Below are positions 12,795 through 28,636 of a stretch of 64,000 nucleotides of DNA, in pieces. Under the pieces are notes generated by a model. It made no database searches, was not told the DNA's origin, and worked only from the letters and a program-made list of their open reading frames with translations. This DNA comes from a virus (taxonomy: Duplodnaviria; Heunggongvirae; Uroviricota; Caudoviricetes): the IMG/VR virus record IMGVR_UViG_3300045988_161152; one strand, 5' to 3'. Each line of letters begins with the position of its first letter. Position 1 is the stretch's first letter. The position numbers and the translations under genes were made by a program.

Positions 12795-13373
12795 ATGTTG
12801 CGCTTTACTGAGGAAGAGTTTCAGGCTTTTAGTGAGCGTCGAAATAAGGGGCGGTCCAGGCCAAAAACCAAAAAGGATCCATTCTTATCGCTTGCGCCGG
12901 TAAAAGAAGTTTCTCCACATGCGAAGGCACTTGCAGCACTTGCAAAGAACCCAGACCTGCGCGACGGAAATTGCGAGCACTTCGAGCAGGTTTTCATTTT
13001 TGATTACTTCGAACGCAAGCACCCTGACATCTATGAGCTGTTGCATGCAACGCCTAACGGAGGGAAGCGTTCAAAAGCAACCGCCGGGAAAATGAAGGCT
13101 GAAGGGCAGAAAAAAGGTTATCCGGACATGAGTCTCGATAAAGCATGCGGTATTTATCACGGCATGCGAATTGAGCTTAAAGAACCAAATGGTAAAGCCC
13201 CGACGAAAGAGCAGATCGCCTGGATGCGCAGGCTTAGAGAGGAAGGCTACTACGTTGTTCTTGCGTATGGTGCAGAACAAGCGATTACCGCCATCCTGGA
13301 ATACATAAGTCTTAAAAAGGGTGAGGCTATTGAGCATGTATTGAACGGCGATAAGTGGTTGCATGCTGCTTAA
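12795..13373 (+). CDS. VRR-NUC family PD-(D/E)xK nuclease-like protein
   Basis: 192 aa; GYPDMSLDKACGIYHGMRIELK (PD...ExK) followed by a Q..W...L...G block. Confidence 0.5.
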   Translation: MLRFTEEEFQAFSERRNKGRSRPKTKKDPFLSLAPVKEVSPHAKALAALAKNPDLRDGNCEHFEQVFIFDYFERKHPDIYELLHATPNGGKRSKATAGKMKAEGQKKGYPDMSLDKACGIYHGMRIELKEPNGKAPTKEQIAWMRRLREEGYYVVLAYGAEQAITAILEYISLKKGEAIEHVLNGDKWLHAA

Positions 13374-13439
13374 AATAATAAATTAATTAGTGCATGTACG
13401 CTCTTTGTGGTAGTGCACTTTAACATCGGGAGAATAATC

Positions 13440-13595
13440 GTGTCATCCAAGGTTAATTATGAGTCGCTGGCATCGGTCATGCCGCGTAATGAACAGGAAA
13501 CAGATGCTGTAGTGGACCCTGTAATCGCTGAAATGAATGCTCGCCTGGAGGCTGAATTTGCAGCTGAGAATGAACATACCACCCAGGGCGACTAG
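13440..13595 (+). CDS. Small acidic hypothetical protein
   Basis: 51 aa from a GTG start with GGGAGA RBS; ORF track gives 13407-13595; overlaps the next gene start. Confidence 0.3.
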   Translation: MSSKVNYESLASVMPRNEQETDAVVDPVIAEMNARLEAEFAAENEHTTQGD

Positions 13596-14199
13596 GACTG
13601 TTTTTTGTGTCGGTAGCGGTCCGTCACTCACTCGTGAGGACTGTGCTGCTATAGAAAAAACTGGCTGTTCAATCATCGCGGTTAACAATTCCTGGCAGAT
13701 GTTCGATGACATTTATGCCTTATACGCCGGTGATTTGTCATGGTGGAAGCAATACGGATCCACCATACCGGGAGGGAGATTCCGCAAAGTGACAGCCAAC
13801 CTGGCGGCGGCGAAATCATTTTCGTTGGAGTACAGGCGATATTGTGGACCGGCGGAAGGGGTAAATAGCGGCGCGCAGGCTATCAGTCTGGCTGCTGAAT
13901 CAGGGGCTGAAGTAGTGGTATTAGTCGGCTATGACTGTTCTCTGCAAAACGGCCTTCATTGGCATGGCGCGCACCCTCAAGCACTACGGAATCCAACGCA
14001 GGTGTCTATTTCAAAATGGCAACAGCAGTTCCTGGATACCCGCAAAAAACACGCAGATTTACATATTTTGAATGCAAGTAGGAGCAGTGCAATTCAATGT
14101 TTCCCAAGAATAAATTTAGAGGCAGTGATCGCGTTATTATCGTCGGCAGTGGCCCAAGCGCCGCAAACTTTGTTGCGCCGCGCGGAGTGCCGATTATAG
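13570..14199 (+). CDS. GxGPS-motif Rossmann-like protein, paralogue 1 (DUF115/GT42-like by motif)
   Basis: VFCVGSGPSL...IIAVNN...VVLVGYD; start set at ATG 13570 so the GSGPS motif sits at the same distance from the N-terminus as in paralogue 2. Confidence 0.5.
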   Translation: MNIPPRATRTVFCVGSGPSLTREDCAAIEKTGCSIIAVNNSWQMFDDIYALYAGDLSWWKQYGSTIPGGRFRKVTANLAAAKSFSLEYRRYCGPAEGVNSGAQAISLAAESGAEVVVLVGYDCSLQNGLHWHGAHPQALRNPTQVSISKWQQQFLDTRKKHADLHILNASRSSAIQCFPRINLEAVIALLSSAVAQAPQTLLRRAECRL

Positions 14200-14723
14200 C
14201 GGTCAATGGGGCCATCGACTGGCTTAACCGCGCTTCTTATTTTTTCACCCTTGATCCATCCCCAGACAATATGCGGCGCGTTGGTCGTGGCCGCCGTCGC
14301 CGTGGTGTTTGTTATTGCATGGCACTACCCGATGTTAAAGAACGTGAAGTCAGAGATGGCGTTCTGTGCTTCCGTCGTGTGGCTGAACGCGGCATGGAGC
14401 CAAAAAATACGAATTCTCCCGAGTGGTGGGCGTGGCGCTGGTCCGCACATTTCGGCCTTTGCGAAGATGAGAATGAAATTGCCAGCGGCAATAGTGCATA
14501 TGGTGCTCTGAACCTGGCTTTCCATATCGGATTCAAACATGTAGCTCTGGTGGGCGTTGACGCTACGCAAGAACTACGCGTTCACTCCGGCGGCACGCCA
14601 AAAAATCTAAGTCACCTGCCTTTGTTATTCCAGTCTGCGCGTGAACAGATTGACGTTGTTTCATGCGGGAAAATGGGAGGTATTCCGCAGATGACTCTTA
14701 AAGAATGGCTGAAGAATACATGA
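14097..14723 (+). CDS. GxGPS-motif Rossmann-like protein, paralogue 2
   Basis: 208 aa; [10 protein letters not shown]...IIAVNG...VALVGVD; overlaps paralogue 1 by 103 nt in another frame. Confidence 0.5.
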
Positions 14724-15397
14724 TGGCACCCACAATTTATCACCGTATCGACGGTACCAAATACAGGAATGTCTGGGTTGTTGGTGATCTGCATGGTTGC
14801 TACACCAGACTGATGTCCGAACTCCATCGTGTGGATTTTGACCCGGCGCAGGATTTACTGATATCGGTCGGCGACCTTATCGATCGCGGTACTGAAAATG
14901 TCGAATGTCTGGAACTATTGCAGATGCCCTGGTTCAGGGCAGTGATGGGGAACCATGAGCGGCTGATGATTGATGCGTTAAGTCCAGATGGCAACGTGAA
15001 TAACTGGCTAATGAATGGCGGACAATGGTTCTTCATGCTGGACACTGATCAGGAAATATTAGCCTGGGCGCTGGTGGAGCTGGTAAAGCGTCTGCCCTAT
15101 ATCATTGAGCTGAACACCGGGCAAGAAACTATCGTTATAGCCCATGCCGACTATCCGGATAATGAATACCAATTCGGTAAGGAGGTACCGCTTTTCAACG
15201 TTGTCTGGGCGCGCGAGCGTATCAGTGATTCGATGGATGATATTGGTGGCGAAATTTCGGGCGCAGATCGTTTTATCTTTGGCCACACTCCGGTGAAAAG
15301 CCCGAAGACATTCTGGAATCAGCAGTATATCGACACTGGTGCCGTATTTTGCGGAAACCTGACATTGATGAAAGTGAAAGGTGATGGTGCAGCATGA
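14705..15397 (+). CDS. ppp: Ser/Thr protein phosphatase (lambda-PP family metallophosphatase)
   Basis: GDLHG, GDLIDRG and GNHE metallophosphatase motifs; N-terminus resembles lambda PP; true start may be ATG 14723. Confidence 0.8.
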
Positions 15398-16095
15398 AGA
15401 TTGCTTTAGTTTTTCGCTCTGGTGGTGACTATAACGCTTCCGATGTGCAGTGGCTGGTTAATCAACTGCCAAAAGGCTATGAAATTATTTGCCTGACAGA
15501 CCTGAAGCGTTTACATGTACCTGGCGTCAAAGTTGTCCCATTGATCAACCAGTGGCAAAAGTGCCGTGGCTGGTGGGCGAAAATCGAGTTGTTCCGACCG
15601 GATATAACCGATGATCTGTTCTATCTGGATTTGGACACGGTTATTGCCGGTGATATACGCCCAATCCTAGAGCATCCACCAACCAGCTTCACCATGCTTA
15701 GGGATTTTTACCATCCACAATATCGTGGCAGCGGTGCCCTGTGGATACCAAATAGTGTTAAAGCGCATATCTGGAGTTCATTCTGGCAAGATCCGGAAGG
15801 TTGGATTTCTCGTTGTGTCACTACTGAGTGCTGGGGTGACCAGGGGTTCTTACGAAAGGTTATGGGCGATGATACACCAGCATTTCAGGATCTGTATCCA
15901 GGATGGTTTGTAAGTTACAAGGCCGATGTTGTGGAACCTGGTTCAAAATATGCGAGCGCGCGTTACTCCAGGGGGAATGGGGCATTACCAAAAGACTGCC
16001 GAATAATCTTTTTCCACGGCAAACCGCGACCTCGCGAAGTGTCAGAGGATTGGCTTCCCCTTATCAGCTCATTTTTTGAGCGAGAATCAGAATAA
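15394..16095 (+). CDS. Glycosyltransferase-like protein (GT-A type, DxD motif)
   Basis: 233 aa; [12 protein letters not shown] DxD signature; ATG overlaps ppp stop (ATGA). Confidence 0.45.
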
Positions 16096-16096
16096 T

Positions 16097-16113
16097 ATTG
16101 CTCTAATAATTCC
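16097..16113. promoter_or_regulatory. C1 operator
   Basis: ATTGCTCTAATAATTCC (14 of 17 consensus positions) starting 2 nt after the stop codon at 16093-16095. Confidence 0.5.
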
Positions 16114-16120
16114 ATATTTT

Positions 16121-16151
16121 TAAAACGTGATGTACACTCATCACGTTTTTT
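16121..16151. terminator. Bidirectional rho-independent terminator
   Basis: AAAACGTGATG-TACACT-CATCACGTTTTTT: 8-bp stem flanked by an A-run and a T-run. Confidence 0.55.
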
Positions 16152-16162
16152 ATTAGAGCAAT
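16146..16162. promoter_or_regulatory. C1 operator (inverted orientation)
   Basis: TTTTTTATTAGAGCAAT is the reverse complement of ATTGCTCTAATAAAAAA. Confidence 0.5.
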
Positions 16163-16176
16163 CTACAAGGTGCACT

Positions 16177-16395
16177 ATGTGGCCATTCCGACGGAAATAT
16201 CACTACTGGCTGATCGCCTTTGTTACGCCGACCGGCGGTATCAGGCATGTCATCACCAGGTATCGCAACAAGAGACTCACCTTAGCCAGAATTTTACAGG
16301 CTGCCATAGGTGAGGGACTGGATACAAATTGCGTAGTCCTTCCTCCTTCATACTTAGGAAAAATGACCGAAGCACAAGCTAATACGGAACTTTGA
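16177..16395 (+). CDS. Hypothetical small protein, first gene of a C1-controlled operon
   Basis: 72-aa ORF just after the operator; its stop abuts the next start. Confidence 0.4.
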   Translation: MWPFRRKYHYWLIAFVTPTGGIRHVITRYRNKRLTLARILQAAIGEGLDTNCVVLPPSYLGKMTEAQANTEL

Positions 16396-16396
16396 A

Positions 16397-17659
16397 ATGA
16401 GCACTTCAGCACAAAACCAATCAATCGAAAATGTATCTATCCCTGACGTCCTGAATGCCGGTATCCCGGCCATTATCCAGAACATCCGGGCCGCGCAACG
16501 CCGCGTTAGTTGTGATGACCTCACAGCGCGTTTTTTTGATAATGCGGTTCAGTCAGCGGAGATGCTTCACGCACAGCTTATTGATGTTTATAACGCAGAA
16601 GCTGATAGCCATAACTCCCTGGTAGATGCAGCTGAAAATATGCAGTTGGATCTCGGTCTGAAGGGTAAAGAAATTGAAGAGCTTCAGCTGGAAATTGAAC
16701 ATTTGAAACGCCAGCAACAGGACGCGATCGACGATGCGACGCATGACGCCAACCAGCGTGCTGATAATGCCGAACGTATAAGCATTGAGCTGGAAACAAA
16801 ACTCAATGAAATGACCGCGATGGTTGAACTGCGGAACTCACAGATTTCAACGCTAAAATCTCAATATAAAGAGATCATGAAACTTGATCCTTTTAACCTT
16901 GAGAAACGCTATAACAAAGCTAAAAGCGAGCGACAGGAACTGCGTAAGCAGGTCGCCGACCTTAACCAACAGCTCAAAAAAACTATTAAAGATGCAAGCG
17001 AAGCGCGCGTGGCATTTGCTAATAAAAAAGCAGAGGTTACCGCGCTGGTTAATGAGAATGCCAAATTTGCGACGCTCAAGAAGGAAATGTATGGCATTAC
17101 TGAGCACCGTTTCCCTGCAAGCAAACTTCATCCGACGTTAGGGCAAATCTCCTTCTTCCCGCGTCTCCTGGCTTATGGGATCTCATCGCCTAAAGAGTTC
17201 AATAACGAGCGTCCTTATATCGTTTCTAAGCTGGACTTTGCTTATCAGTTCTGCTGCGACATGGGCTATGCCATTGATATCCGAATCAACGAATGGTTGA
17301 TGCCAAACTTCCAGCCGTTGGCAATTTTCCGCGAGTTCCAGCCGGAAGGTTGGGTAGAGTTCTTCCATGAATTGATCTGTAAAGAGATGGAAAGCCGCCG
17401 CCCGGAACTGGTCCGCCGTGTCGAGTGGGCGCAAGAGGTTATGTTGGCAGATGCAGAGCTGCCGTTCGAACCGGAATTCATTGATGATCTGGCAACTAAA
17501 GGGCTGCATACCCTGTTTGATGTGGTTACCCGCCGTCATGAGCAGTTGGTTGTCGAATTGGGTTTAGAGGAAACTGCGGCAAGAAGACTTCTCGATGTTT
17601 GCTATGCACGTAGCGATGCATGGGAAAAAGAGAACGGCGGCACTATTTACGTTCGCTGA
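16397..17659 (+). CDS. Hypothetical protein with N-terminal coiled coil
   Basis: 420-aa ORF; heptad-rich region (LQLEIEHLKRQQQ...). Confidence 0.6.
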   Translation: MSTSAQNQSIENVSIPDVLNAGIPAIIQNIRAAQRRVSCDDLTARFFDNAVQSAEMLHAQLIDVYNAEADSHNSLVDAAENMQLDLGLKGKEIEELQLEIEHLKRQQQDAIDDATHDANQRADNAERISIELETKLNEMTAMVELRNSQISTLKSQYKEIMKLDPFNLEKRYNKAKSERQELRKQVADLNQQLKKTIKDASEARVAFANKKAEVTALVNENAKFATLKKEMYGITEHRFPASKLHPTLGQISFFPRLLAYGISSPKEFNNERPYIVSKLDFAYQFCCDMGYAIDIRINEWLMPNFQPLAIFREFQPEGWVEFFHELICKEMESRRPELVRRVEWAQEVMLADAELPFEPEFIDDLATKGLHTLFDVVTRRHEQLVVELGLEETAARRLLDVCYARSDAWEKENGGTIYVR

Positions 17660-17731
17660 TAGTTACAGTGTCACTTTTAATGCTGGTGGAGTGCTCCCAC
17701 CAGCATTTTTTTCGTCCAATGAGGAGGGCAT

Positions 17732-18238
17732 TTGAGTATTTTCAATAAACACGCACACCAGGAACGTCCGTACATCGTCATAGTAGATATTGATGGGACG
17801 ATATCAGAGGCAACGGAAGACAGGCTGCATTTACTTCCACCACCTGGCAAAGGTGCATTAACAGAGCACTGGAACGAGTTTAACCTTGCCTGTGACACTG
17901 ATGCTCCCATCACTCCAGTTATTGATATGGTGCGCCAGTTGTCCGGCATTTACACCCTCTGGTTTGTAACCGGGCGCTGTGAGATAGCCAGGGATAAAAC
18001 ACGAGCCTGGTTGCGTAAGCACGTAACAAATGGGGCTGAGCCTTTGCTATCTATGCGTCCTGCCACCGATGACAGAAATGACGGTCCAGCAAAGATTGAT
18101 CTCCTTAAGAAAATTGGTCTAAGTAAAATTGCGTTCGCGCTGGAAGATAAGATTGAAGTGGCGCGTGTATTCAGGAGGCACGGCGTGCTTACGTTAATGG
18201 TCAGGGAGTATGAAAACGCGCTTCTCCATCAACAATAA
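17732..18238 (+). CDS. pap: HAD-superfamily phosphatase (class B acid phosphatase-like)
   Basis: 168 aa from a TTG start with GGAGG RBS; HAD motif I VDIDGT; symbol from recalled P1 gene order. Confidence 0.55.
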   Translation: MSIFNKHAHQERPYIVIVDIDGTISEATEDRLHLLPPPGKGALTEHWNEFNLACDTDAPITPVIDMVRQLSGIYTLWFVTGRCEIARDKTRAWLRKHVTNGAEPLLSMRPATDDRNDGPAKIDLLKKIGLSKIAFALEDKIEVARVFRRHGVLTLMVREYENALLHQQ

Positions 18239-18254
18239 TTGCTCTAATAAATAT
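18238..18254. promoter_or_regulatory. C1 operator
   Basis: ATTGCTCTAATAAATAT (16 of 17 consensus positions) directly after the pap stop. Confidence 0.55.
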
Positions 18255-18332
18255 TGATTTTTAAAACAGAGAAAGTGAAAATAAAAACATGCCGCAAGGC
18301 GCGGCATGTATCCAATCACAGGAGCTGAAAAT

Positions 18333-18428: not shown

Positions 18429-19016
18429 ATGAAAGGCGAAGTGAAAGAGCGCGGCATGATTTTTAACGATGAGATGGTCCGGGCAATTCTTGGCGGGAAT
18501 AAAACACAGACTCGCAGGATTGTTGAAGAAAAATTCTATGGACGGGCAGTGGCCGCAGAGTTGCTTGCCAAGCATTGTCCATATGGTCAACCGGGCGATC
18601 GTATTTGGGTTCGCGAAACCTACCGGGTACATGGCAAAGCGACGGACGTCGCAACGCTGGTTTATCGCGCAAGCGTGCGTAACTCCTGGACAGAACAAAC
18701 GCACCGGGTTCCGGTCGAGGTTTGTAATAAACCAGTATCAGAAAAGTGGACGCCATCAATTCACATGCCGCGCTGGGCATCGCGCATTCTTCTGGAAATT
18801 ACCAACGTGCGCGTTGAGCGGTTGAACGATATCAGCGAATGCGATGCAAGGGCTGAGGGCGCACCAACAGAATCGACCCTCATTGGCGATAAGCATTACC
18901 CAAGTTTCCGTAGCCTATGGAAATCAATTTATGGCGAAGATAGTTGGAACGCTAATCCTTGGGTGTGGGTAATCGAGTTTAAGCGTATTCAGGGGGCAAC
19001 CAGTGAGCAAAATTAA
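18429..19016 (+). CDS. ASCH-domain protein (YqfB-like)
   Basis: MIFNDEMVRAILGGNKTQTRR and C-terminal WVWVIEFKRI resemble E. coli YqfB; start may be ATG 18456. Confidence 0.6.
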   Translation: MKGEVKERGMIFNDEMVRAILGGNKTQTRRIVEEKFYGRAVAAELLAKHCPYGQPGDRIWVRETYRVHGKATDVATLVYRASVRNSWTEQTHRVPVEVCNKPVSEKWTPSIHMPRWASRILLEITNVRVERLNDISECDARAEGAPTESTLIGDKHYPSFRSLWKSIYGEDSWNANPWVWVIEFKRIQGATSEQN

Positions 19017-19707
19017 CTATCAAGAACTGCGCGAGGCGGCGGAACAGGCAACGCAAGATGAATGGGTAGCATATATTTTGCCGGGTCATAACGGCATTTA
19101 TCCTGCGCGCACGTCTGAGGGTAGGCATTGCGGATACTTTATTGACTGGCCTGGCATTGATGGACAAAGGAATGCTGGTGCCAATGCCCGTTATATCGCG
19201 GCTATCCCACCAAAAGTTGCGCTGGCGCTACTGGATAAAATTAAGCACCTGGAGGACACAAATATTGATGCCACATGCCGTATTGCGGAGTTTGAGACTA
19301 ATCTCGCGGCGCTGGTGGCAGAGAACGCCGGGCTGAAACACGCAATGGCCGTAACTCTTGAGCATGTGTCGGTCACGGATGCAGGGCAGGCTGGTGTTGC
19401 TGCAATGATTATCAACGATGCCCTATACCACAGCGAAACTCCAGCTACCGATGCTTTTCTGGCTGAAATTCGTGCGGAAGCACGCAACGAGGGGATTAAC
19501 TATACCGCCAGCCGTCTTGCTGCTGCGTTCAATCACGGATTTATCAATAAGTCTTTGCGTGAAGTTTTCGACGTTACACGCATGATTTTGTCAGCGAAAG
19601 AAGAGTTGGCTAATGAAGCGCATCCGATTGATGGCCTGTCTGGTGAATATGCGGAGAAATCCCTTGAAGAATGGGCGGAACAGATTCGCAAAGGAAGCAG
19701 CCAGTGA
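19003..19707 (+). CDS. Mosaic paralogue family member A
   Basis: 234 aa; shares MSKINYQELREAAEQA with 21002 and PATDAFLAEIRA plus a ...QIRKGSSQ tail with 19991. Confidence 0.6.
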   Translation: MSKINYQELREAAEQATQDEWVAYILPGHNGIYPARTSEGRHCGYFIDWPGIDGQRNAGANARYIAAIPPKVALALLDKIKHLEDTNIDATCRIAEFETNLAALVAENAGLKHAMAVTLEHVSVTDAGQAGVAAMIINDALYHSETPATDAFLAEIRAEARNEGINYTASRLAAAFNHGFINKSLREVFDVTRMILSAKEELANEAHPIDGLSGEYAEKSLEEWAEQIRKGSSQ

Positions 19708-19994
19708 ATATCGACACGACAATAACGATCGATACGCTCCTAAATACCGGTCTGGCACTTCTCGGTTGGCTTTACATCATGTCCCGTACATGGCGATGGC
19801 TGGGTTCCATTTTCCTAAAACAGTGGAAAAAACGGCGCAAACAGGAACTACGCCAGAAGGCATTAGAAGCGTTCTATGACGCATTTGAGCTTAGCCGCAT
19901 TGAACCAGGTACAACAGCCAGGATAGCGACAAAAGGCGACCTGATGATAGTGATGTTCCGACAGGAGAGAGCAGAGAAAGGGGAATCAGCATGA
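19704..19994 (+). CDS. Small membrane protein
   Basis: GTG overlapping the upstream stop (GTGA); hydrophobic segment LLNTGLALLGWLYIM. Confidence 0.45.
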   Translation: MNIDTTITIDTLLNTGLALLGWLYIMSRTWRWLGSIFLKQWKKRRKQELRQKALEAFYDAFELSRIEPGTTARIATKGDLMIVMFRQERAEKGESA

Positions 19995-20704
19995 AATTTT
20001 CCAAATTTTCTGAGTTGGTGAATCGTATTTTGTCCAACAACCACAGCCATCGTCGCGATATGGATGTAACAATCGTTGTTCATTCGCCTGGCAGCATTGG
20101 TTCAACACCTTCAGTTGAGGTTCAGTCAATTCACGCTGGTTTTGATTGGGATTCCGGGAAAGTGCTGATTTTCCCATCACAGCCACTGACCACGCTAACA
20201 CCAGAACAGATTACTGATATCACTGATAGTGTGCGCAAAGGTCAGTCTTGGCACGCATATCAGGAATACAAGAAGCATCAAGAGCAGTTGGAAAAATTGT
20301 CGATTGAACTGGATGCCGCAAAACAGCGCATTGCAGAGCTGGATGGTAATCGCACGGCGCTGGCAGTGGAGAATGCCTCAATGAAGCTGTTTATCAGGGG
20401 CTGTTGCTACGTGTTTGATGGCCAGCAGGATGAAATATCTGATGCGTATATCTGCGCAACAGACGGAGGGATGCCGCAAATTCCAGCCACCGACGCTTTC
20501 CTGGCTGAAGTTCGGGCGCAGGGGGTGGATGCTGCTATAGAAGCTGCAAAAAATCTGGTGGCCCAAGAATATGAGTATAAGGATTTCAAAGCGGCGCAGA
20601 GTGATTGCTGTATGCACCCTGGTTCAGACCGGGTAGGGAAGGTTGAAATGACTGAGTGGTTAGTTGACTTTGCTGCCCAGCTTCGCAAAGGAGGCAACCA
20701 GTGA
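19991..20704 (+). CDS. Mosaic paralogue family member B
   Basis: 237 aa; ATGA overlap with upstream stop; shares blocks with member A. Confidence 0.6.
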   Translation: MKFSKFSELVNRILSNNHSHRRDMDVTIVVHSPGSIGSTPSVEVQSIHAGFDWDSGKVLIFPSQPLTTLTPEQITDITDSVRKGQSWHAYQEYKKHQEQLEKLSIELDAAKQRIAELDGNRTALAVENASMKLFIRGCCYVFDGQQDEISDAYICATDGGMPQIPATDAFLAEVRAQGVDAAIEAAKNLVAQEYEYKDFKAAQSDCCMHPGSDRVGKVEMTEWLVDFAAQLRKGGNQ

Positions 20705-21000
20705 CTGTATGTCTTATTGATAAACGTCGACGTGGGCAACAAATACCATCTGTTGAAATGCCGAATCACACATGGTTTTGCGTACTTGATATCGATGGTA
20801 TGGATACGTTGGTTGACACTCGTCATTACTGCGATACCGCAACAGCTACTCCGGCGAAAGCAAAGAAAATGGCTGCTCTGATAGAAAACTGGACTCCACC
20901 TGATGGTTGGTGCAATGGGAATGATCGAGATTGGCACGAAAAAATGAAGGGCTATATCTGCGATTTTTTACGTAAATGCAACGGCTTCAGGGTGATGTGA
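20701..21000 (+). CDS. Hypothetical protein
   Basis: 99-aa ORF, GTGA-coupled to the upstream gene. Confidence 0.5.
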   Translation: MTVCLIDKRRRGQQIPSVEMPNHTWFCVLDIDGMDTLVDTRHYCDTATATPAKAKKMAALIENWTPPDGWCNGNDRDWHEKMKGYICDFLRKCNGFRVM

Positions 21001-21001
21001 T

Positions 21002-21691
21002 ATGACCAAAATTAACTATCAGGCACTGCGTGAGGCGGCAGAACGTGCAATTCCGGCAATGGAACGCCTGTTAATGTTGCCAGTTGATGATGATCTGATA
21101 AGCGAACAGGAACTTAAAGATTACGGTGTGGATATTGATGCGCTCAACGCCTTCAAATTTCTGGCCGGACCAGAAACCGTGCTGGCACTGCTGGATGAAC
21201 TGGAAAGAAACCAGCAATACATCAAACGCCGTGACCAGGAGAACGAGGAAATTGCGCTAACGGTAGGGAGGCTTCGCGTTGAGCTGGAAGGCAAAGACAG
21301 CAAAATAGCCAATCTTACCGCCGAACGCGATGCTCTTCGTGAAGGTGAGATGGGCGACGCTAGGCATAGCAACACACGGGCCGCAGCTGATATCTACTTC
21401 CAACTGGTCGAGGAGTGCGAAATTCCTGCTGGCGGATCTCTGGTCGAGTACGTTGACGATATGCGCGAGAAGCTGGAAGCCGCAGAGAAGCGCATTGCAG
21501 AGTTAGAAAGTGGTTCTCAGGCACAAAAGTTAGTTGAAGCAATCATTGTTGCGATAGAAAACGAACAGGAAAGGCTTTTTGATGAAGATTACCTAATGGA
21601 TTCGAAAGAATGCATTGACGTAATTCGTGAAGAAGTAAAGCGATGGAATGATTCCCGTGCCGCTGGCATTCGCATCAACGGAGGTGAGTAG
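21002..21691 (+). CDS. Mosaic paralogue family member C (coiled-coil)
   Basis: 229 aa; N-terminus MTKINYQALREAAERA parallels member A. Confidence 0.6.
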   Translation: MTKINYQALREAAERAIPAMERLLMLPVDDDLISEQELKDYGVDIDALNAFKFLAGPETVLALLDELERNQQYIKRRDQENEEIALTVGRLRVELEGKDSKIANLTAERDALREGEMGDARHSNTRAAADIYFQLVEECEIPAGGSLVEYVDDMREKLEAAEKRIAELESGSQAQKLVEAIIVAIENEQERLFDEDYLMDSKECIDVIREEVKRWNDSRAAGIRINGGE

Positions 21692-21863
21692 TGCGTGTGG
21701 CATGTATCGGCTTGTTACCGTACCCGACTCGTTTTTGGGCTTCTGCGCTAATTGCAAAGCCACATGTCCTGATGGCTGACAACATCATCCCGGCACCAAA
21801 GCGCCGCCATACCGGTATTGCAGCGGCACGACGAGCAGCAAAGAGACGCAGGAGAGCAAAGCG

Positions 21864-22040
21864 ATGAAAAACCGTAAGGCAAAACGACTTTTTTTACAGC
21901 GTCCTGTGCGTGTGGTGGAGCTGGTTATTAGCAACCATAAGATAGCGGTACTCCATCCATTTGGTCAGGTGGCTTTTGCCGCAAAGCGTAAGCCTACTGC
22001 GTCACAGAACAGGCGGAAGAAAGGGTACGCTGTAAGATGA
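21864..22040 (+). CDS. Small basic protein, tandem copy 1
   Basis: 58 aa, GGAGAG RBS; MKNRKAKRLFLQR...; stop overlaps the next ATG (ATGA). Confidence 0.45.
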   Translation: MKNRKAKRLFLQRPVRVVELVISNHKIAVLHPFGQVAFAAKRKPTASQNRRKKGYAVR

Positions 22041-22225
22041 AAAACCGTAAAGCAAAGATTCTGTTAGTTCGTAGAAACGCTCCTGGCGTCTGGCAGTGGG
22101 TGAGACTCAGCAACCGACGGATGGGGTTGATGAAATATTACGGGATGATGGATTGTGGTTTTTGCAAAAAGCCCAGCGCGGCGCAAAACCGCTGGAAAAA
22201 CCACTTGCGCACTAAAGGAGAGTGA
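22037..22225 (+). CDS. Small basic protein, tandem copy 2 (paralogue of 21864-22040)
   Basis: 62 aa; MKNRKAKILLVRR...; shares N-terminus and a KKPSAAQNRWK block with copy 1. Confidence 0.5.
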   Translation: MKNRKAKILLVRRNAPGVWQWVRLSNRRMGLMKYYGMMDCGFCKKPSAAQNRWKNHLRTKGE

Positions 22226-22226
22226 T

Positions 22227-22742
22227 ATGGCGTTAACACACCGCGAACTCTGTCAGATTGCGTACAAGTTCCTTAAGCGCAACGGGTTCAAGGTTTGTTT
22301 TCATGACCGCTTTATAGCTGTAACCAGTACCGGAGAACAGCCAGATGCTATGGGATTCAGAAATTCAGCATCATGCCTGATAGAGGCGAAATGTTCTCGT
22401 GCTGACTTGTTGGCAGATAGAAAAAAGCGTTTTCGTAAAAATCCGTCTCTTGGAATGGGCGACTGGCGATTCTTTATTAGTGAGCCGGGAATTATTTCAA
22501 TTGAGGATTTACCACCTGGCTGGGGATTACTTCACGTTGTTAACGGAAGAGTACGGAAAGTACATGGGTGGCCCAAGGGTAATTGCTGTTGGGGTAATCC
22601 TGACGATAAGCCATTTACTGGAAATAAGCAGGTTGAATGCGATTACATGTTATCTGCATTAAGGCGTATGGAGTTGAGAGGGCACCTTAATGAAATATAT
22701 GACGGTGTAATTGTTAATAAGAAAGAAGGAAACGCGGCATGA
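22227..22742 (+). CDS. PD-(D/E)xK nuclease-fold protein
   Basis: Start set at ATG 22227 with AAGGAGAG RBS (ORF track 22155); GEQPD...LIEAKCS motif. Confidence 0.5.
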   Translation: MALTHRELCQIAYKFLKRNGFKVCFHDRFIAVTSTGEQPDAMGFRNSASCLIEAKCSRADLLADRKKRFRKNPSLGMGDWRFFISEPGIISIEDLPPGWGLLHVVNGRVRKVHGWPKGNCCWGNPDDKPFTGNKQVECDYMLSALRRMELRGHLNEIYDGVIVNKKEGNAA

Positions 22743-23749
22743 CCACTATTGCCAAAGATCGACTACTGACAATCAAGCAGTGGCGCGAAACATACGGACC
22801 GGGTAGCAACGTTGTACTGCCAGCAGAAGAAGCGGAAGAACTGGCACGAATTGCTCTGGCATCGCTGGAAGCAGAGCCTGTTCTGTATCAGTCCTGCACT
22901 CGCCCCACTTGGAATAGCGGTGTTCCGTGGACGGAATGGAAAGAACGAAGTCGTGAGTGCTACGAAGACGATTTGCGCTTTACAGACACGCCTGACCATG
23001 CCGGTTGGATATACAAATGTCGAAAATTATATACCACTCCGCCAGCGCCGATAGCGTTAGAGGCCATCGAAAACGCAATTGAATACATCCGCAGTATCGC
23101 TTTTCACATCGATGACGACGATTACCACGGCAAACATATTGCGTATTTCATGCGACAAGCATTGGCCTGGCTGGAAGGGCATTCATGCAGCGACGACAGA
23201 CTGGGTAAGGCCGACAATCAACCCGCATCTGGTAACCAGGCTGCCGAATCCAATCGCGGTAATGAGTGGACCGGCAATCCTGATATTGATAACGCCATCA
23301 TCATGCTCGACCGCATAGATACGGCGGAAAGTTGCGATGATGACCGTATTGAGGCCGTTAAGGCTGTGTTGCGTAGACTGGCAGGCAACTATCCGGATAT
23401 TCCGGATAGTTCGGTGCCAGCGCCAGGAAAGGGCGTCACCGGTGAACGTATCCGCATTAAGCCGCATGTTTATCGCGAACTGGTTAACCGTCTCCACGAT
23501 ACAGCGATCAAGTGTGCTGGCACCCAGCAATTACGAGAAAGAATTAGCCGTGTTTTGGGCGACGTTATTACGCCATATCATCATAAACAAGCCGAGAAAA
23601 GCGGTCTGGAAAGGTGTCATCTTGAGGCAGCATTAAACATTAAGCCGGGGCATACGCTTGGCATTATTGATGCACTGTTGGTTCATAAGATGGCCAGGGC
23701 TTTATTGTCGTTGGTGGACGCTGGTGATACAAGCGAGGGTGAAGTATGA
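22739..23749 (+). CDS. Hypothetical acidic protein
   Basis: 336-aa ORF, ATGA-coupled to the upstream gene. Confidence 0.6.
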   Translation: MTTIAKDRLLTIKQWRETYGPGSNVVLPAEEAEELARIALASLEAEPVLYQSCTRPTWNSGVPWTEWKERSRECYEDDLRFTDTPDHAGWIYKCRKLYTTPPAPIALEAIENAIEYIRSIAFHIDDDDYHGKHIAYFMRQALAWLEGHSCSDDRLGKADNQPASGNQAAESNRGNEWTGNPDIDNAIIMLDRIDTAESCDDDRIEAVKAVLRRLAGNYPDIPDSSVPAPGKGVTGERIRIKPHVYRELVNRLHDTAIKCAGTQQLRERISRVLGDVITPYHHKQAEKSGLERCHLEAALNIKPGHTLGIIDALLVHKMARALLSLVDAGDTSEGEV

Positions 23750-24108
23750 GAGTTGCAGATCACATCAAACACCTTGAAAGAATTATCGAAAACGGTGAAC
23801 TCTTAAGAGATCAGATGAGACGCACGGCAGAAGCCAGGGAGGCGATAATCCGCAGTCAGGCTGGTAAATTAAAGCAATTGTCAGAGATTAACACGCTATA
23901 CAAGAACAGACGTAACCGGGCGGTGATGCGGCTTCAGAAAGCACGTAATGAAATTAAATTGGTGGAGGCAAAACTGAAAAAACAGATCCAGCGTTACGAT
24001 CAGCAAGATGCTTTTTATGCCGCCATCAAGGCGGCTGCTAATGAAATAGGCATCTGGAAGTTGCTGGTGGAGAAAGCAAAGACGAAGTTAAATGCCAACG
24101 AAAGCTGA
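23746..24108 (+). CDS. Hypothetical coiled-coil protein
   Basis: 120-aa ORF, ATGA-coupled; last gene of the operon. Confidence 0.55.
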   Translation: MRVADHIKHLERIIENGELLRDQMRRTAEAREAIIRSQAGKLKQLSEINTLYKNRRNRAVMRLQKARNEIKLVEAKLKKQIQRYDQQDAFYAAIKAAANEIGIWKLLVEKAKTKLNANES

Positions 24109-24164
24109 ACTACAGGTGCCCACCAGCACATACAGAAAATGATTGTTTCCACATCAAGGAGATT

Positions 24165-24187
24165 TTAATGTTTCACTGAAACATTAA
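24165..24187. repeat. Perfect 23-bp palindrome TTAATGTTTCACTGAAACATTAA
   Basis: 11-bp arms around a central C; overlaps the stop of the small minus-strand ORF. Confidence 0.5.
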
Positions 24188-24321
24188 GTAAGCCAGTGCA
24201 TAATTCCATTTTTTACTGACCTTAAAAGCAAAATCAAAACGATGATGAGGATAATAGCCAGAATCTGGCTAATAATAGGCGCATCTAAAAATGCACTCAG
24301 GAACTGAAAAAAAGCGTTCAT
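24184..24321 (-). CDS. 45-aa single-pass membrane peptide
   Basis: MNAFFQFLSAFLDAPIISQILAIILIIVLILLLRSVKNGIMHWLT; AGGA about 10 nt upstream of the ATG; sits in an AT-rich non-coding island. Confidence 0.35.
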   Translation of the reverse strand: MNAFFQFLSAFLDAPIISQILAIILIIVLILLLRSVKNGIMHWLT

Positions 24322-25183
24322 TCAGGTGGTTCCTTGTCAAATGTAAAGGTGCACTTGCTCACGTTGACGTAGAAACCCAACCCCTATATAGTTGGATTCG
24401 GTGAATGAAAGTCGTTAACGTGAGCTTACGGCACATGTTTTCGGAAAAACATCAGGGAACGGCTAATTCCTTGATGCGGGTGGGGTCTGTAATACAGACC
24501 CTATCTATTAACGTCATGATTGCATCTCAAATTTTCTCCTTATCTTCAATTAATCTACATTCATTTCATCTGTTAGCCACCACAATATGTAGAAAATGGC
24601 CCTCTTGCAAGTGCATAACTTTGTGGATAACTCAGGAAGGAAAAAGTGGCTTTCGCGCACCTTCGGTCAGACAAGGTGTCCGGGAAAGTCAACGCAAAGA
24701 AAAAAATTGTTAAAAATAACGTTTGTTGGAATTGTATATTTTTATCCCCTTCAATGGTTAGCATTCCATTAACATCTTTTTTTAGAGACAGAAAAACATA
24801 TCGTAACAACATATATACAGTATTAAGAGGCGAGTATTATCCTGCGGTGGGAATTCTGGGCGCTGTTAGATTCGACTTTCTCAGCAGGATTACATCGTCA
24901 ACTTGCGACGTTGCCGTATGACTTTCGTGTAATAGGTGACAATGATGCGGCTAGTGAGTTACTTGTGAAGTTTTTCGGAAAAGGTTTTGTGGCCTCGGAT
25001 CTTGATGAGCTACAGCAACATGAAGTGTCTAATTTGATTTTTAGCCATAGCCAATAAGCCTCCCTCCTCCATCAAGGCCACAATTTGTGACCTTAAACAA
25101 TTTGTTTTCTGCTTTTTCTTATTTGAGAAAATAACGTTGTTGACAGCTAATAGGCTCGTTGTTGTTATACATGCCTGTATAGA

Positions 25184-25540
25184 TTATGACCGTAAATTAT
25201 TAGCGGATTTTAAGCCATATTCACCGTTGTAGAAATTACTCATGTTCCATTCATTAGGAAGTTCTTTTCTGTCCAATGTATAGTGGCGCACGATATAACG
25301 ATCTTCATCTTCTTCGATGGACAGGCGGACATAGCCAATGTGGATCACCGATACGGGCGGTGTTCGTATTGCATAGATGTCGCGGAGATATACCGGTAGC
25401 TCGACAAATGCATCAGGTGCATCTGTGATGCTCGTTTTTTCACAGTATTCATATAACGCATCGTTGATATCGTTAAGAGATTCATGATCGTATATTTCCA
25501 GGTAATTACCGCGATCGCGATGGTACTCGATTTTAGCCAT
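25184..25540 (-). CDS. Hypothetical protein, second gene of a two-gene minus-strand module
   Basis: 118-aa ORF; start abuts the stop of the upstream 194-aa gene. Confidence 0.55.
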   Translation of the reverse strand: MAKIEYHRDRGNYLEIYDHESLNDINDALYEYCEKTSITDAPDAFVELPVYLRDIYAIRTPPVSVIHIGYVRLSIEEDEDRYIVRHYTLDRKELPNEWNMSNFYNGEYGLKSANNLRS

Positions 25541-26125
25541 TCAAAATCCCCTGTTATCGTTTTGCATTTCTCTAATCCGGTTCAGAACTACTTCATGCTG
25601 GGCTTGGATAGCGGCTTTTTCGTTTTCAAGTCGGGCAATAGACATCTCTAATTCTTTGCTGTACCAGGCGAGTTGGGCCAGGTTCATCCGGTTGTGGTCG
25701 AGAGTTGGAGACACTTCGACGCGCTCCCTTTCTTCCTGCTTTAATGAGAAGAGATTCATCTCATCCCTAGAGGAAAATTCAGCAACAATTTCTTGTTGAT
25801 GATCCGGTCGCTGCGGCATCCTCGCCAGTATAAATGGCGGTTCTTTTGAAAACATGAATGTCGGTTCAGAACGTGTTTTCACCCATCTAGCCTGCTGTCT
25901 TTCGGCAAGTTCACAGGCTTCATCATAGTTATTTGCCAAACCAAGCACGGATGGGCGGTCCCACGCGCCACCATTCAGACAATAAACAACAATTTTCCCG
26001 TCATGTTCTGTAACCCCATAGGGATGGTCCCACCAGGCGTCCAGCTGAGCTTTAGAGCGTTTCTCGTTAGGAGTGCAGTCAAAATTTTTGGGCAATACAG
26101 GATCGAGAGGAATGCGATTAGGCAT
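25541..26125 (-). CDS. Hypothetical protein with C-terminal coiled coil
   Basis: 194-aa ORF transcribed divergently from humD. Confidence 0.55.
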   Translation of the reverse strand: MPNRIPLDPVLPKNFDCTPNEKRSKAQLDAWWDHPYGVTEHDGKIVVYCLNGGAWDRPSVLGLANNYDEACELAERQQARWVKTRSEPTFMFSKEPPFILARMPQRPDHQQEIVAEFSSRDEMNLFSLKQEERERVEVSPTLDHNRMNLAQLAWYSKELEMSIARLENEKAAIQAQHEVVLNRIREMQNDNRGF

Positions 26126-26260
26126 AGCTAATTCCTTATTAACTGATTGGCAACGAGGTTACGCTGATCCGTTGGTGATGAATAGTAGCAAAGAGCACAA
26201 AATCATCAGCGGTGGTTGATGTACGTAACGCGTTTGCACCAAAGGTGTCTCTTTAATGTA

Positions 26261-26280
26261 TACTGTATAAATGAACAGTA
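26261..26280. promoter_or_regulatory. LexA box (SOS operator) overlapping the humD promoter
   Basis: TACTGTATAAATGAACAGTA: perfect CTGT-N8-ACAG about 20 bp upstream of the humD ATG and overlapping a TATAAAT -10. Confidence 0.8.
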
Positions 26281-26299
26281 TTATTGAGGTGAAAACGCT

Positions 26300-26689
26300 A
26301 TGGGCTTCCCTTCTCCTGCGGCGGATTATGTTGAAAGCCGAATTTCTCTTGATCAGCAACTAATCAGGCATCCATCAGCAACCTACTTCATGCGGGCAGC
26401 TGATAGCCATCACCGTGAGGGAATATTGCAGGGTGCTTTGCTGGTGGTTGATTCCTCGCTTACTCCGGTTGATGGTTCTCTGCTTGTCTGCGCTATGGAG
26501 GGTGAATATCGCATAAAGAGATACCGAAAGTATCCGCGCCAGCACCTGGAGGATTTAAGCACCGGGAAGAAAGAGGCGTTACCAGTAGATGACGATGGTT
26601 ACACGGGTAGTAATGCTGTTTTTGGTGTGATCACTCATGTCATCAATGATGCCCGAAGTGGGGAATTTGATGATTGTCCGGTGATTTAA
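26300..26689 (+). CDS. humD: UmuD-prime homologue HumD
   Basis: 129-aa ORF with GAGGTGA RBS directly downstream of the LexA box; position before phd-doc as in P1; UmuD' relation is from recalled P1 annotation. Confidence 0.75.
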   Translation: MGFPSPAADYVESRISLDQQLIRHPSATYFMRAADSHHREGILQGALLVVDSSLTPVDGSLLVCAMEGEYRIKRYRKYPRQHLEDLSTGKKEALPVDDDGYTGSNAVFGVITHVINDARSGEFDDCPVI

Positions 26690-26730
26690 GCTGCAAAGTG
26701 CTGGTGCTTTATGCCTGTGAAGTTTATAAT

Positions 26731-26755
26731 TGTGTACACATAACGAGTACACGAG
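26731..26755. promoter_or_regulatory. phd-doc promoter with palindromic operator-like sites
   Basis: TATAAT at 26725-26730 followed by perfect palindrome TGTGTACACA and half-site AGTACAC. Confidence 0.5.
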
Positions 26756-26761
26756 GTGTTT

Positions 26762-26983
26762 ATGCAATCCATTAACTTCCGTACCGCGCGCGGCAACCTT
26801 TCTGAAGTGCTCAACAATGTTGAAGCCGGGGAAGAGGTTGAAATCACCCGCAGAGGCCGTGAGCCAGCAGTAATTGTCAGCAAGGCTACTTTCGAAGCCT
26901 ACAAAAAAGCGGCGCTGGATGCTGAATTTGCATCCCTGTTTGACACCCTGGACTCCACCAACAAGGAACTGGTTAACCGATAA
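26762..26983 (+). CDS. phd: Antitoxin Phd
   Basis: 73 aa ([16 protein letters not shown]...); ATG overlaps the doc start. Confidence 0.9.
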
Positions 26984-27363
26984 TGAGACATATATCACCG
27001 GAAGAACTTGTTGCGCTTCATGATGCGAATATAAGCCGCTACGGCGGCCTGCCGGGAATGTCTGATCCGGGTAGGGCAGAGGCCATTATCGGGAGAGTTC
27101 AGGCCAGAGTTGCCTACGAAGAGATCACCGACCTTTTCGAAGTCTCCGCCACCTACCTGGTGGCTACAGCGAGAGGGCATATATTCAATGATGCCAATAA
27201 GCGTACCGCGCTAAACAGTGCGCTGCTATTTCTACGCCGTAACGGGGTGCAGGTATTTGATTCACCTGAACTGGCAGACCTTACCGTAGGCGCTGCGACT
27301 GGCGAGATATCTGTATCTTCTGTCGCCGACACGTTACGTAGATTGTATGGTTCTGCGGAGTAG
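26983..27363 (+). CDS. doc: Toxin Doc (Fic-fold kinase)
   Basis: 126 aa; Fic-like motif [11 protein letters not shown]. Confidence 0.9.
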
Positions 27364-27367
27364 ATTA

Positions 27368-27547
27368 ATGGCACGTAAATACAACAAGTTGTCCCGTGAA
27401 GCGTTAAAGATGCTTCTTGATGGCGTGAGCCGCCGCAAGGTAAAGCAATACCTGGTCGGTAAGCAAATTGGAGTCAGGACCGCTATTGCTGTGTTATGCC
27501 GTCAGGAAATGGTTGTGCTTAAACAGAGAATGCCGGGCAGCAGATAA
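27368..27547 (+). CDS. pdcA: Small post-doc protein
   Basis: 59 aa from ATG 27368 (ORF track 27347); symbol from recalled P1 order. Confidence 0.45.
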   Translation: MARKYNKLSREALKMLLDGVSRRKVKQYLVGKQIGVRTAIAVLCRQEMVVLKQRMPGSR

Positions 27548-27574
27548 AGCCCAATCAGTGATTAAAGGTGTGAT

Positions 27575-28618
27575 GTGAAAGCCATAATTACTCCCTTTGT
27601 ACAGAAAGAGCTTGGCCTCGCCACGTTCAAAGTGGATCAGGAGGTCAGAAAGCTGGTGGAGGCTGGCCGTAAATTTATTATGGAGCCGGTGCCGCGTGAG
27701 TTAATCGAGCACATGGAAGACGGCCTCGTTGTTACCGAGCAAACCATGGCAACAAATGAGGCGTTGCAGCCGTTTTTTAACAGCGATGAACTGTTTCGCC
27801 GTATTGGTGGAATTGACTCGCTGGTGGCGTGGTTGCGTAGGAAAGAGGGTCAATGCCAGGCCGCAGATCGTAGTTGGTGTGACAACCATATTGTCCACGC
27901 TGAACGAGACAATAGCGCGGTGTTGTTGTGCTGGCATCACGATAACCATTACCGGATGCGTGGTTTTAATGAGCTGAAAGAAACGTTGCACAATAATCGC
28001 GTTAACTGGATACTGGATGTCGCCCGTCAGGAAATGGGCCTTTCAAATAGCCATGATTTAAGTATTCAGGAGCTGTGCTGGTGGGCTTTCATGCGCAACA
28101 TGATGCACCTGATGCCGGAAGAAGTCTGCCGCATATCAATAAATAAGATGAAGGCTACTCCGCAGGATAGCGGACCTCTGAAAGAGGCGGATATTCGCCC
28201 GTATGACGATCGCGCTACAGCATATGTTCAGATGATGGAAGAACGCGCCGCGCCGATGCGTGCAAAAGTATGCCCTGTGGATGTTGACTCCGACCCAGGT
28301 ATGGCGCATTTCAAAATACCAAAACTTCAATCGCTAAAATTGCCCGAGTACATGGACTTTGTGGCTTCCCGTCCATGCTGTGGCTGTGGAGCTGCGGGAG
28401 CTGGCGCTCACATTACGCCTTATATCGTTCGTCATAGTCGATTATGCGCGCATGACATTTATGCTATTCCTCTGTGCCAGTCATGCCAGCGTGATATTGA
28501 GCGTGACCGCGATAATTGGGAGAAGACGCACGGTAGGCTGGCGATGCATCAACGATTGTTCTTTGATTACGCGCTTGGAGTCGGCGCTATCACAAGTCAT
28601 TCGTCGAGCGTTAGATAA
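27575..28618 (+). CDS. pdcB: Cysteine-rich post-doc protein
   Basis: 347 aa from a GTG start; [12 protein letters not shown] and CQSCQ motifs. Confidence 0.55.
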
Positions 28619-28619
28619 A

Positions 28620-28636
28620 ATTGCTCTAATGTATTG
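28620..28636. promoter_or_regulatory. C1 operator upstream of lpa
   Basis: ATTGCTCTAATGTATTG followed by an overlapping second ATTGCTAT. Confidence 0.5.

Follow-up and report, generated by a model that had tools for sequence, protein, structure and literature searches.

What is the task of a 66-bp stretch in which two repressor sites enclose a hairpin, between two blocks of phage genes that are read in the same direction? The stretch occupies positions 16097-16162 of a viral sequence of 64,000 nucleotides assigned to the Caudoviricetes (IMG/VR record IMGVR_UViG_3300045988_161152), the whole of which is called the window below. In an initial annotation it was taken for two inverted C1 operators around a strong bidirectional terminator, and it was supposed that repressors bound at both sites could loop the DNA and so isolate an upstream modification operon from the downstream one in lysogens. 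Our reading, to which we would give a probability of roughly 0.7, is that the 66-bp element forms the junction of two rightward units, each bearing C1 operators, and that a terminator, a promoter and the operators overlap within it.

Results

The element is a curated operator pair of P1 between two rightward gene blocks

Over about 4.5 kb around the element the window is P1-like (99.2% identity to JL22, 98.6% to P1 and 98.4% to P7), with P1 and P7 100% identical over the 381 bp centred on the element, and this stretch is present in 687 plasmid records, mainly phage-plasmids of Escherichia and Salmonella. When the P1 annotation (AF234172 / NC_005856) is transferred to the window with an offset of 10999, the features OpmgRa, OpmgRb and PpmgR fall on these exact bases and are sequence-identical in the window. 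The left-hand site is worded in AF234172 as 'monovalent C1-controlled operator OpmgRa; corresponds to former Op86a; controls expression of pmgR and pmgS', the right-hand site is named 'OpmgRb; former Op86b', and both are called 'monovalent'; the same two protein_bind features are annotated in P7 (AF503408). By sequence and annotation, then, the operator pair is no new device but a regulatory element already known and curated in P1 and P7; the former names Op86a and Op86b are used here. The hairpin that lies between the two operators is unannotated in the 18 kb of AF234172 examined, but as there is no terminator feature whatsoever in those 18 kb, even at the strong hairpin 3′ of pmgS, its absence from the record is uninformative. 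What goes beyond the annotation is a conserved nested hairpin, a presumed transcription start in its loop and a U tract shared with an operator, a combination that is plausible, has support in part and is modest in interest.

From pmgL to pap, every gene that is annotated lies on the + strand. The upstream block consists of pmgL, pmgM, pmgN, pmgO, pmgP, ppp and pmgQ, and its controls are the late promoter LPpmgL (12440-12458), predicted sigma-70 promoters and the operators Op82 (12473-12489) and Op83 (13380-13396). The last gene of this unit (pmgL/pmgN to pmgQ) is pmgQ (15394-16095, + strand, from the open reading frame list and the P1 annotation), whose stop codon ends 1 base before Op86a. 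Downstream of the element the order is pmgR, pmgS, a strong hairpin, pap, Op88 and pmgT. The first gene of the downstream unit, pmgR (16177-16395, + strand, 72 aa), is preceded by the Shine-Dalgarno sequence AAGG at 16167-16170, and the second, pmgS (16397-17659, + strand, 420 aa), is again given by both the open reading frame list and the P1 annotation. That the flanking genes make up modification operons was not established by the domain searches. The only Pfam families found were a metallophosphatase upstream (Ppp) and a PNKP-type HAD phosphatase downstream (Pap), PmgQ, PmgR and PmgS giving no significant family, and pmgR is an essential head-tail joining gene, the deletion of which results in unjoined heads and tails (PMC9024508).

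Several features of the neighbourhood deserve mention in their own right. PmgO and PmgP (13537-14720) have sub-threshold Pfam matches to the MptE-like family PF01973 (E 6e-5 and 3e-4); weak as they are, these matches, which do not reach the gathering score, suggest a pair of paralogous enzymes. In JL22 (L211, 3973-4275) and in many plasmid records pmgR is unannotated, so that pmgQ and pmgS seem to be 300 bp apart. In plasmids NZ_OP242262 and NZ_OY757106 an IS1 transposase about 235 bp 5′ of the element interrupts pmgQ, and the element and pmgS are kept. Farther downstream, the interval from pmgT to lpa (about 18430-28620) is about 4.8 kb longer than that of P1 (operator offsets 66055 vs 61283) and about 2 kb longer than that of JL22, in which it holds an adenine methyltransferase gene and Ea22/EaA-like genes; this interval is a variable region of P1-like phage-plasmids (PMC9603915).

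Op86a and Op86b match the C1 consensus and enclose a predicted start site

The consensus C1 operator is an asymmetric sequence of 17 bp, ATTGCTCTAATAAATTT (PMC8546580). The element from 16097 to 16162 reads ATTGCTCTAATAATTCC-atattttt-AAAACGTGATG-tacact-CATCACGTTTT-tt..., its right-hand end being closed by ATTAGAGCAAT. Op86a (ATTGCTCTAATAATTCC, 16097-16113, + strand, annotated in AF234172 as a protein_bind feature for 'phage repressor C1') and Op86b (ATTGCTCTAATAAAAAA, 16146-16162, - strand, likewise annotated there) each agree with the consensus at 14/17 positions, bases 1-13 being exact in both, and their outer arms (16097-16109 with 16150-16162) make a perfect 13-nt inverted repeat. The three mismatches of Op86b all fall at positions 15-17 (A for T), and it is these departures that turn AAATTT into an unbroken run of T on the + strand. 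Op86a differs from Oc1e at one base. Matches to the consensus with at most three mismatches number 14 in the window where chance would give 0.24, the exact 11-mer ATTGCTCTAAT is present nine times (about 0.03 expected) and the paired-operator pattern occurs once, with none in 100 shuffles. The two oppositely oriented operator copies of the initial annotation thus stand, and on these matches and the annotation in P1 and P7 Op86a and Op86b are C1 operators. It could be objected that each site is 3/17 off the consensus and that both might be chance look-alikes or functionless relics, but this is scarcely credible: the 13-base core is exact in both, the pair arose in no shuffle, the sites are kept (bar position 1 of Op86b) among lineages where the flanks are about 30% diverged, and recognised operators can be no nearer to the consensus, the other nine annotated operators of P1 having 1-7 mismatches when read out and Olpa/Op94 having three, equal to Op86a and Op86b.

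A bivalent C1 operator, in which inverted 17-mers overlap with their centres about 11 bp apart, was also considered for the pair and rejected, as the sites are separated by 32 bp (49 bp centre to centre) and are annotated as monovalent.

The sigma-70 promoter PpmgR, labelled 'predicted' in AF234172, spans 16098-16126 on the + strand, with a -35 hexamer TTGCTC (16098-16103), a 17-bp spacer and a -10 hexamer TAAAAC (16121-16126). By consensus it is weak (7/12 positions overall, 3/6 in the -35 and 4/6 in the -10, the last -10 position lacking T), and it was not called in a consensus promoter scan of the window. At the same position JK004 has the -10 sequence TGAAGC. From the standard spacing between -10 and start, transcription would begin at about 16133-16134. 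Op86a contains the -35 hexamer and Op86b is placed about 13-29 bp past this presumed start, a geometry suited to occlusion of the promoter. The layout TTGCTC-17-TAAAAC recurs at Op88/P2pmgT.

Some variation was seen at other control sites. At Op88/OpmgT (18238-18267) the window has ATTGCTCTAATAAATAT where P1 has ...AAATCT, which brings the window one base nearer to the consensus, and in the -10 of the predicted promoter PpmgN (13341-13367) it has CATGCT where P1 has TATGCT, so that the first T of the hexamer is lost. The pmgT leader contains a strong G+C-rich hairpin (18287-18309, 10 pairs of which 6 are G-C) about 15-20 nt past the expected P2pmgT start; the T run that belongs to it is found on the minus strand, where no gene runs into it. 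The P1 record notes that the same stretch is also present downstream of plasmid hsd loci.

The hairpin looks like a moderate terminator for rightward transcription

The hairpin at 16122-16151 on the + strand starts 27 nt past the pmgQ stop codon and consists of arms at 16122-16132 and 16139-16149, a loop at 16133-16138 and a U tract at 16146-16151. The stem is a perfect 11 bp with a 6-nt loop (-13.4 kcal/mol, z = -5.9; 0/200 shuffles fold equally well). Its core, 16126-16132 paired with 16139-16145, has 7 bp, 4 of them G-C, with an energy of -8.5 kcal/mol, and TTTTTT follows directly. The hairpin is interlocked with the other signals of the element at both of its sides: the -10 of PpmgR overlaps the 5′ arm, and the T run is also part of Op86b, the last six bases of the operator being its complement. 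Although the terminator scan of the window did not list this hairpin, this is probably because the extension of the stem through A:T pairs consumes the T run. A G-C stem-loop, a U tract, a place at the 3′ end of a unit and pairing kept in evolution are the properties of an intrinsic terminator, and the hairpin looks like a moderate one for rightward transcription from pmgQ. The initial annotation was right about a terminator-like hairpin, which is moreover conserved, but 'strong' overstates it; the strong one is the hairpin that closes the pmgR-pmgS unit (17679-17714, + strand; 11 pairs, 6 G-C in the scan), at -17.7 kcal/mol. The latter hairpin, between pmgS and pap, has its stem at 17679-17707 and seven T, and is without annotation in AF234172.

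Nor does the hairpin appear to work in both directions, as had been proposed. With every gene from pmgL to pap on the + strand there is no convergent gene that a leftward terminator could serve; the minus-strand tail (UUUUAAAAA / UUUUAAAAAUA) has only UUUU and then A's; and the A run is unconserved, being GAAG in JK004.

Operators and pairing are conserved across diverged lineages

Four diverged lineages were compared, comprising Cronobacter phage JK004, three Salmonella plasmids, one IMG/VR contig and the P1 group. When the lineages are aligned together, the coding flanks differ by about 30%, and no alignment is possible over the 14 bp that separate Op86b from the start codon of pmgR. Constant throughout are ATTGCTCTAATAATT at the left-hand end, GTTTTTTATTAGAGCAA at the right-hand end and the length of 66 bp. 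Positions 1-15 of Op86a are invariant and Op86b is conserved except at position 1 (A, G or T). As this position varies without a matching change in Op86a, the outer arms are maintained as a pair of protein sites rather than for stem formation. The same picture was obtained among 79 close-relative loci, which were ascertained through PmgS and so carry no bias towards intact operators. In these loci operator positions 1-15 never vary; the 34 operator positions show three singleton sites (one singleton variant in Op86b), and the 14 bp that follow show six segregating sites with 42 variant cells. At both depths, therefore, the operators are more conserved than the surrounding non-coding DNA. The element is 66 bp long in nearly all of about 170 loci, the exceptions all being 67 bp.

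The hairpin core exists in two alleles, CGTGATG/CATCACG and CATGGTG/CACCATG, which differ by two compensatory pairs (G-C to A-T and A-T to G-C); JK004 adds a U.G pair, and G.U changes also occur among the lineages. Pairing is retained in 97% of hairpin cells, and neither the paired fraction nor the covariation score was reached in 500 shuffles; in slid controls of the alignment the paired fraction drops to 40-57%. In all alleles the core has an energy of -8.5 to -9.1 kcal/mol and is followed by six U. Several singleton variants in close relatives break a stem pair. Because only two alleles were found, the covariation rests on few independent events, and the two compensatory changes may trace to one lineage split. 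When IMG/VR and metagenomes were scanned for the pattern, the 118 and 51 stretches retrieved, respectively, showed the architecture at this locus only, and none had a third hairpin allele. A genome-contig scan with the PmgS alignment gave two near-identical loci and a viral-contig protein scan gave 80, and in a tblastn search of phages with PmgS the only matches were P1-like phages, JK004 and two weak ones in Pseudomonas phages, with none in D6.

As the inner palindrome is perfect in the DNA and its half-sites changed together between lineages, which is also possible for a symmetric protein site, it might be a binding site for a dimeric protein, or a cruciform, to which the operators are merely adjacent. 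The alignment speaks against this. Twelve cells, the U.G of JK004 included, pair only as G.U on the + strand RNA, so that the symmetry of the DNA is broken; about 12 cells keep their pairing through G.U on the + strand RNA vs about four on the - strand, a bias that is suggestive and is not treated as significant. In addition the loop sequence varies freely (TACACT vs TATCAT), six T in a row are conserved after the stem, and 27 nt past a stop codon is the standard place for a terminator. No known motif was matched: a search of Rfam yielded nothing beyond a miRNA hit to the long inverted repeat, which was below threshold and without meaning, and inspection of the palindrome by eye for LexA or other known boxes gave no match. 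We regard the DNA-site explanation as highly improbable and continue to treat the palindrome as an RNA hairpin.

Expression changes class at the pmgQ/pmgR gap

Published RNA-seq of P1vir provides gene-level logFC values at 10 and 30 min, from one study with a virulent mutant and with unclear length normalisation (PMC8201110, Table S1). In the wild-type host the logFC of pmgQ is 7.05 at 10 min and 11.66 at 30 min, and the increase between these times is 4.0-4.6 for 7/7 genes from pmgL to pmgQ (PMC8201110). Immediately beyond the element the values go from 9.02 to 10.81 for pmgR (a rise of 1.8) and from 9.99 to 11.70 for pmgS (1.7), and pmgT behaves similarly (9.72 to 11.66, 1.9), as do hrdC (9.40 to 11.98, 2.6) and dmt (8.85 to 11.25, 2.4) (PMC8201110). 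The step is seen again in the dksA host, where the upstream genes rise by 4.0-5.0 vs 1.45-1.49 for pmgR and pmgS (PMC8201110). At the resolution of gene-level values, the expression class therefore switches exactly at the gap between pmgQ and pmgR (PMC8201110). The supposition that this junction separates two transcription units is supported, if not decisively, by these kinetics, which fit a separate early promoter at the junction with little late read-through from LPpmgL, partial read-through at 30 min being possible. The pap gene, which is without an annotated promoter, shows an intermediate rise of 2.8 (PMC8201110).

The early expression also bears on a different role for the hairpin, that of a leader attenuator of pmgR-pmgS, in which transcription would start 5′ of 16122 and mostly end at the U tract until some factor lifted the block in lytic growth. 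Although the hairpin does sit between the -35 of the sole predicted promoter and the pmgR start codon, the annotated -10 would place the start at about 16133, within the loop, and no better -10 was found further upstream. As pmgR and pmgS are already high at 10 min, with no sign of a strong stop in the leader, attenuation seems unlikely to us, and we keep to the reading of the hairpin as the end of the upstream unit.

CRISPRi roadblocks in pmgO, pmgP, ppp and pmgQ leave plaque formation unharmed (PMC10695390). This fits with pmgR having its own promoter, but as the pmgR guide is itself without a phenotype the CRISPRi data are given no weight (PMC10695390). The roadblock in pmgN (about 13440-13595) was scored as essential (EOP 1.4E-02), whereas deletion of pmgN is harmless (PMC10695390); since the roadblocks in pmgO, pmgP, ppp and pmgQ are nonessential, simple polarity on pmgR does not explain the pmgN score.

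Discussion

In the scheme that we propose for the junction, the hairpin and its U tract (16122-16151) would end rightward transcripts of the pmgL/pmgN-pmgQ unit, including the late ones from LPpmgL, and PpmgR would start the RNA of pmgR-pmgS at about the hairpin loop. If the start is in the loop, transcripts from PpmgR lack the 5′ arm and the terminator could not form on them. In the prophage, C1 on Op86a (over the -35) and on Op86b (about +13 to +29) would keep PpmgR off; as both sites lie within the footprint of RNA polymerase, their occupation should suffice for tight repression and no DNA loop is required. Put together, these steps would make the element a nested module, a terminator inside a repressible promoter, by which upstream transcripts are stopped and local starts are immune, with the U tract written into Op86b. 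We advance this nested arrangement tentatively, and think it a little less probable than not that all of its parts hold. A bolder version, in which C1 on Op86b alters the efficiency of the terminator and insulation thus depends on immunity, is unlikely.

The initial proposal placed the need for isolation in lysogens. There the upstream unit bears its own C1 operators, Op82 and Op83, which points to insulation mattering mainly in lytic growth, when LPpmgL fires. The same fact weakens the idea that C1 repressors bound at the inverted pair make contact, looping or clamping the intervening 32 bp, as a repressor-dependent insulator against read-through in lysogens, for little would be left to insulate. 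Such contact between bound repressors would agree with the presence of inverted operators at a fixed distance in all lineages, and we have counted for it that C1-mediated looping has reportedly been described in the Schuster laboratory's work on the c1 region. The fixed length is, however, fully explained by the 17-bp spacer, the -10 in the stem and the U tract in Op86b, and AF234172 calls both sites 'monovalent'. Moreover, the first obstacle to a polymerase coming from pmgQ would be C1 at Op86a and not the hairpin, which would be redundant in that state. The classical repressor loops are also much longer (lac O1-O3 92 bp, gal OE-OI 113 bp), the 49 bp from centre to centre being about half the shortest of them. 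For these reasons we judge looping to be very unlikely, and prefer occlusion of PpmgR by C1 at two separate sites.

The significance of the locus beyond annotation is small, the operator pair being a curated feature of a model phage. What the comparison adds is that the hairpin is real and evolutionarily maintained and is likely to be the 3′ boundary of the pmgL-pmgQ unit, for its late transcripts too. The essential head-tail gene pmgR would be read from its own early, C1-controlled unit and not from the upstream late promoter. Should the start and stop sites be confirmed, the compact overlap of operator, promoter and terminator might find use as a small insulating part in P1-based engineering.

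Comparison with known systems

Compared with OpmgRa, OpmgRb and PpmgR of P1, the element is the same here in sequence, position, orientation and neighbouring genes. The hairpin, as a putative terminator, resembles the canonical intrinsic terminators of E. coli and its phages in having a G-C stem-loop with an immediate U tract just 3′ of a stop codon, but differs in its short 7-bp core, its moderate G+C content and its embedding in a promoter-operator region. As with Op86, the pairs of operators in the lac O1-O3 and gal OE-OI loops bracket a promoter, but the Op86 spacing is about half of theirs and C1 is described as binding asymmetric single sites (PMC8546580). Within P1 the closest parallel to PpmgR is OpmgT/Op88 with P2pmgT (18238-18267), in which the -35 likewise lies in the operator, followed by the spacer and the -10, directly past the stop codon of the preceding gene; at Op88, unlike Op86, there is neither a second operator nor a hairpin in the interval from the -10 to the gene. 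The bivalent operators of P1, such as Oc1ab (Op99a/b), in which inverted 17-mers overlap with centres 11 bp apart, share with the Op86 pair the inverted order (+ then -), the A/T-rich ends that face each other and the regulation of one promoter. Unlike Oc1ab, the Op86 pair consists of two monovalent sites that enclose the -10, the start site and the hairpin.
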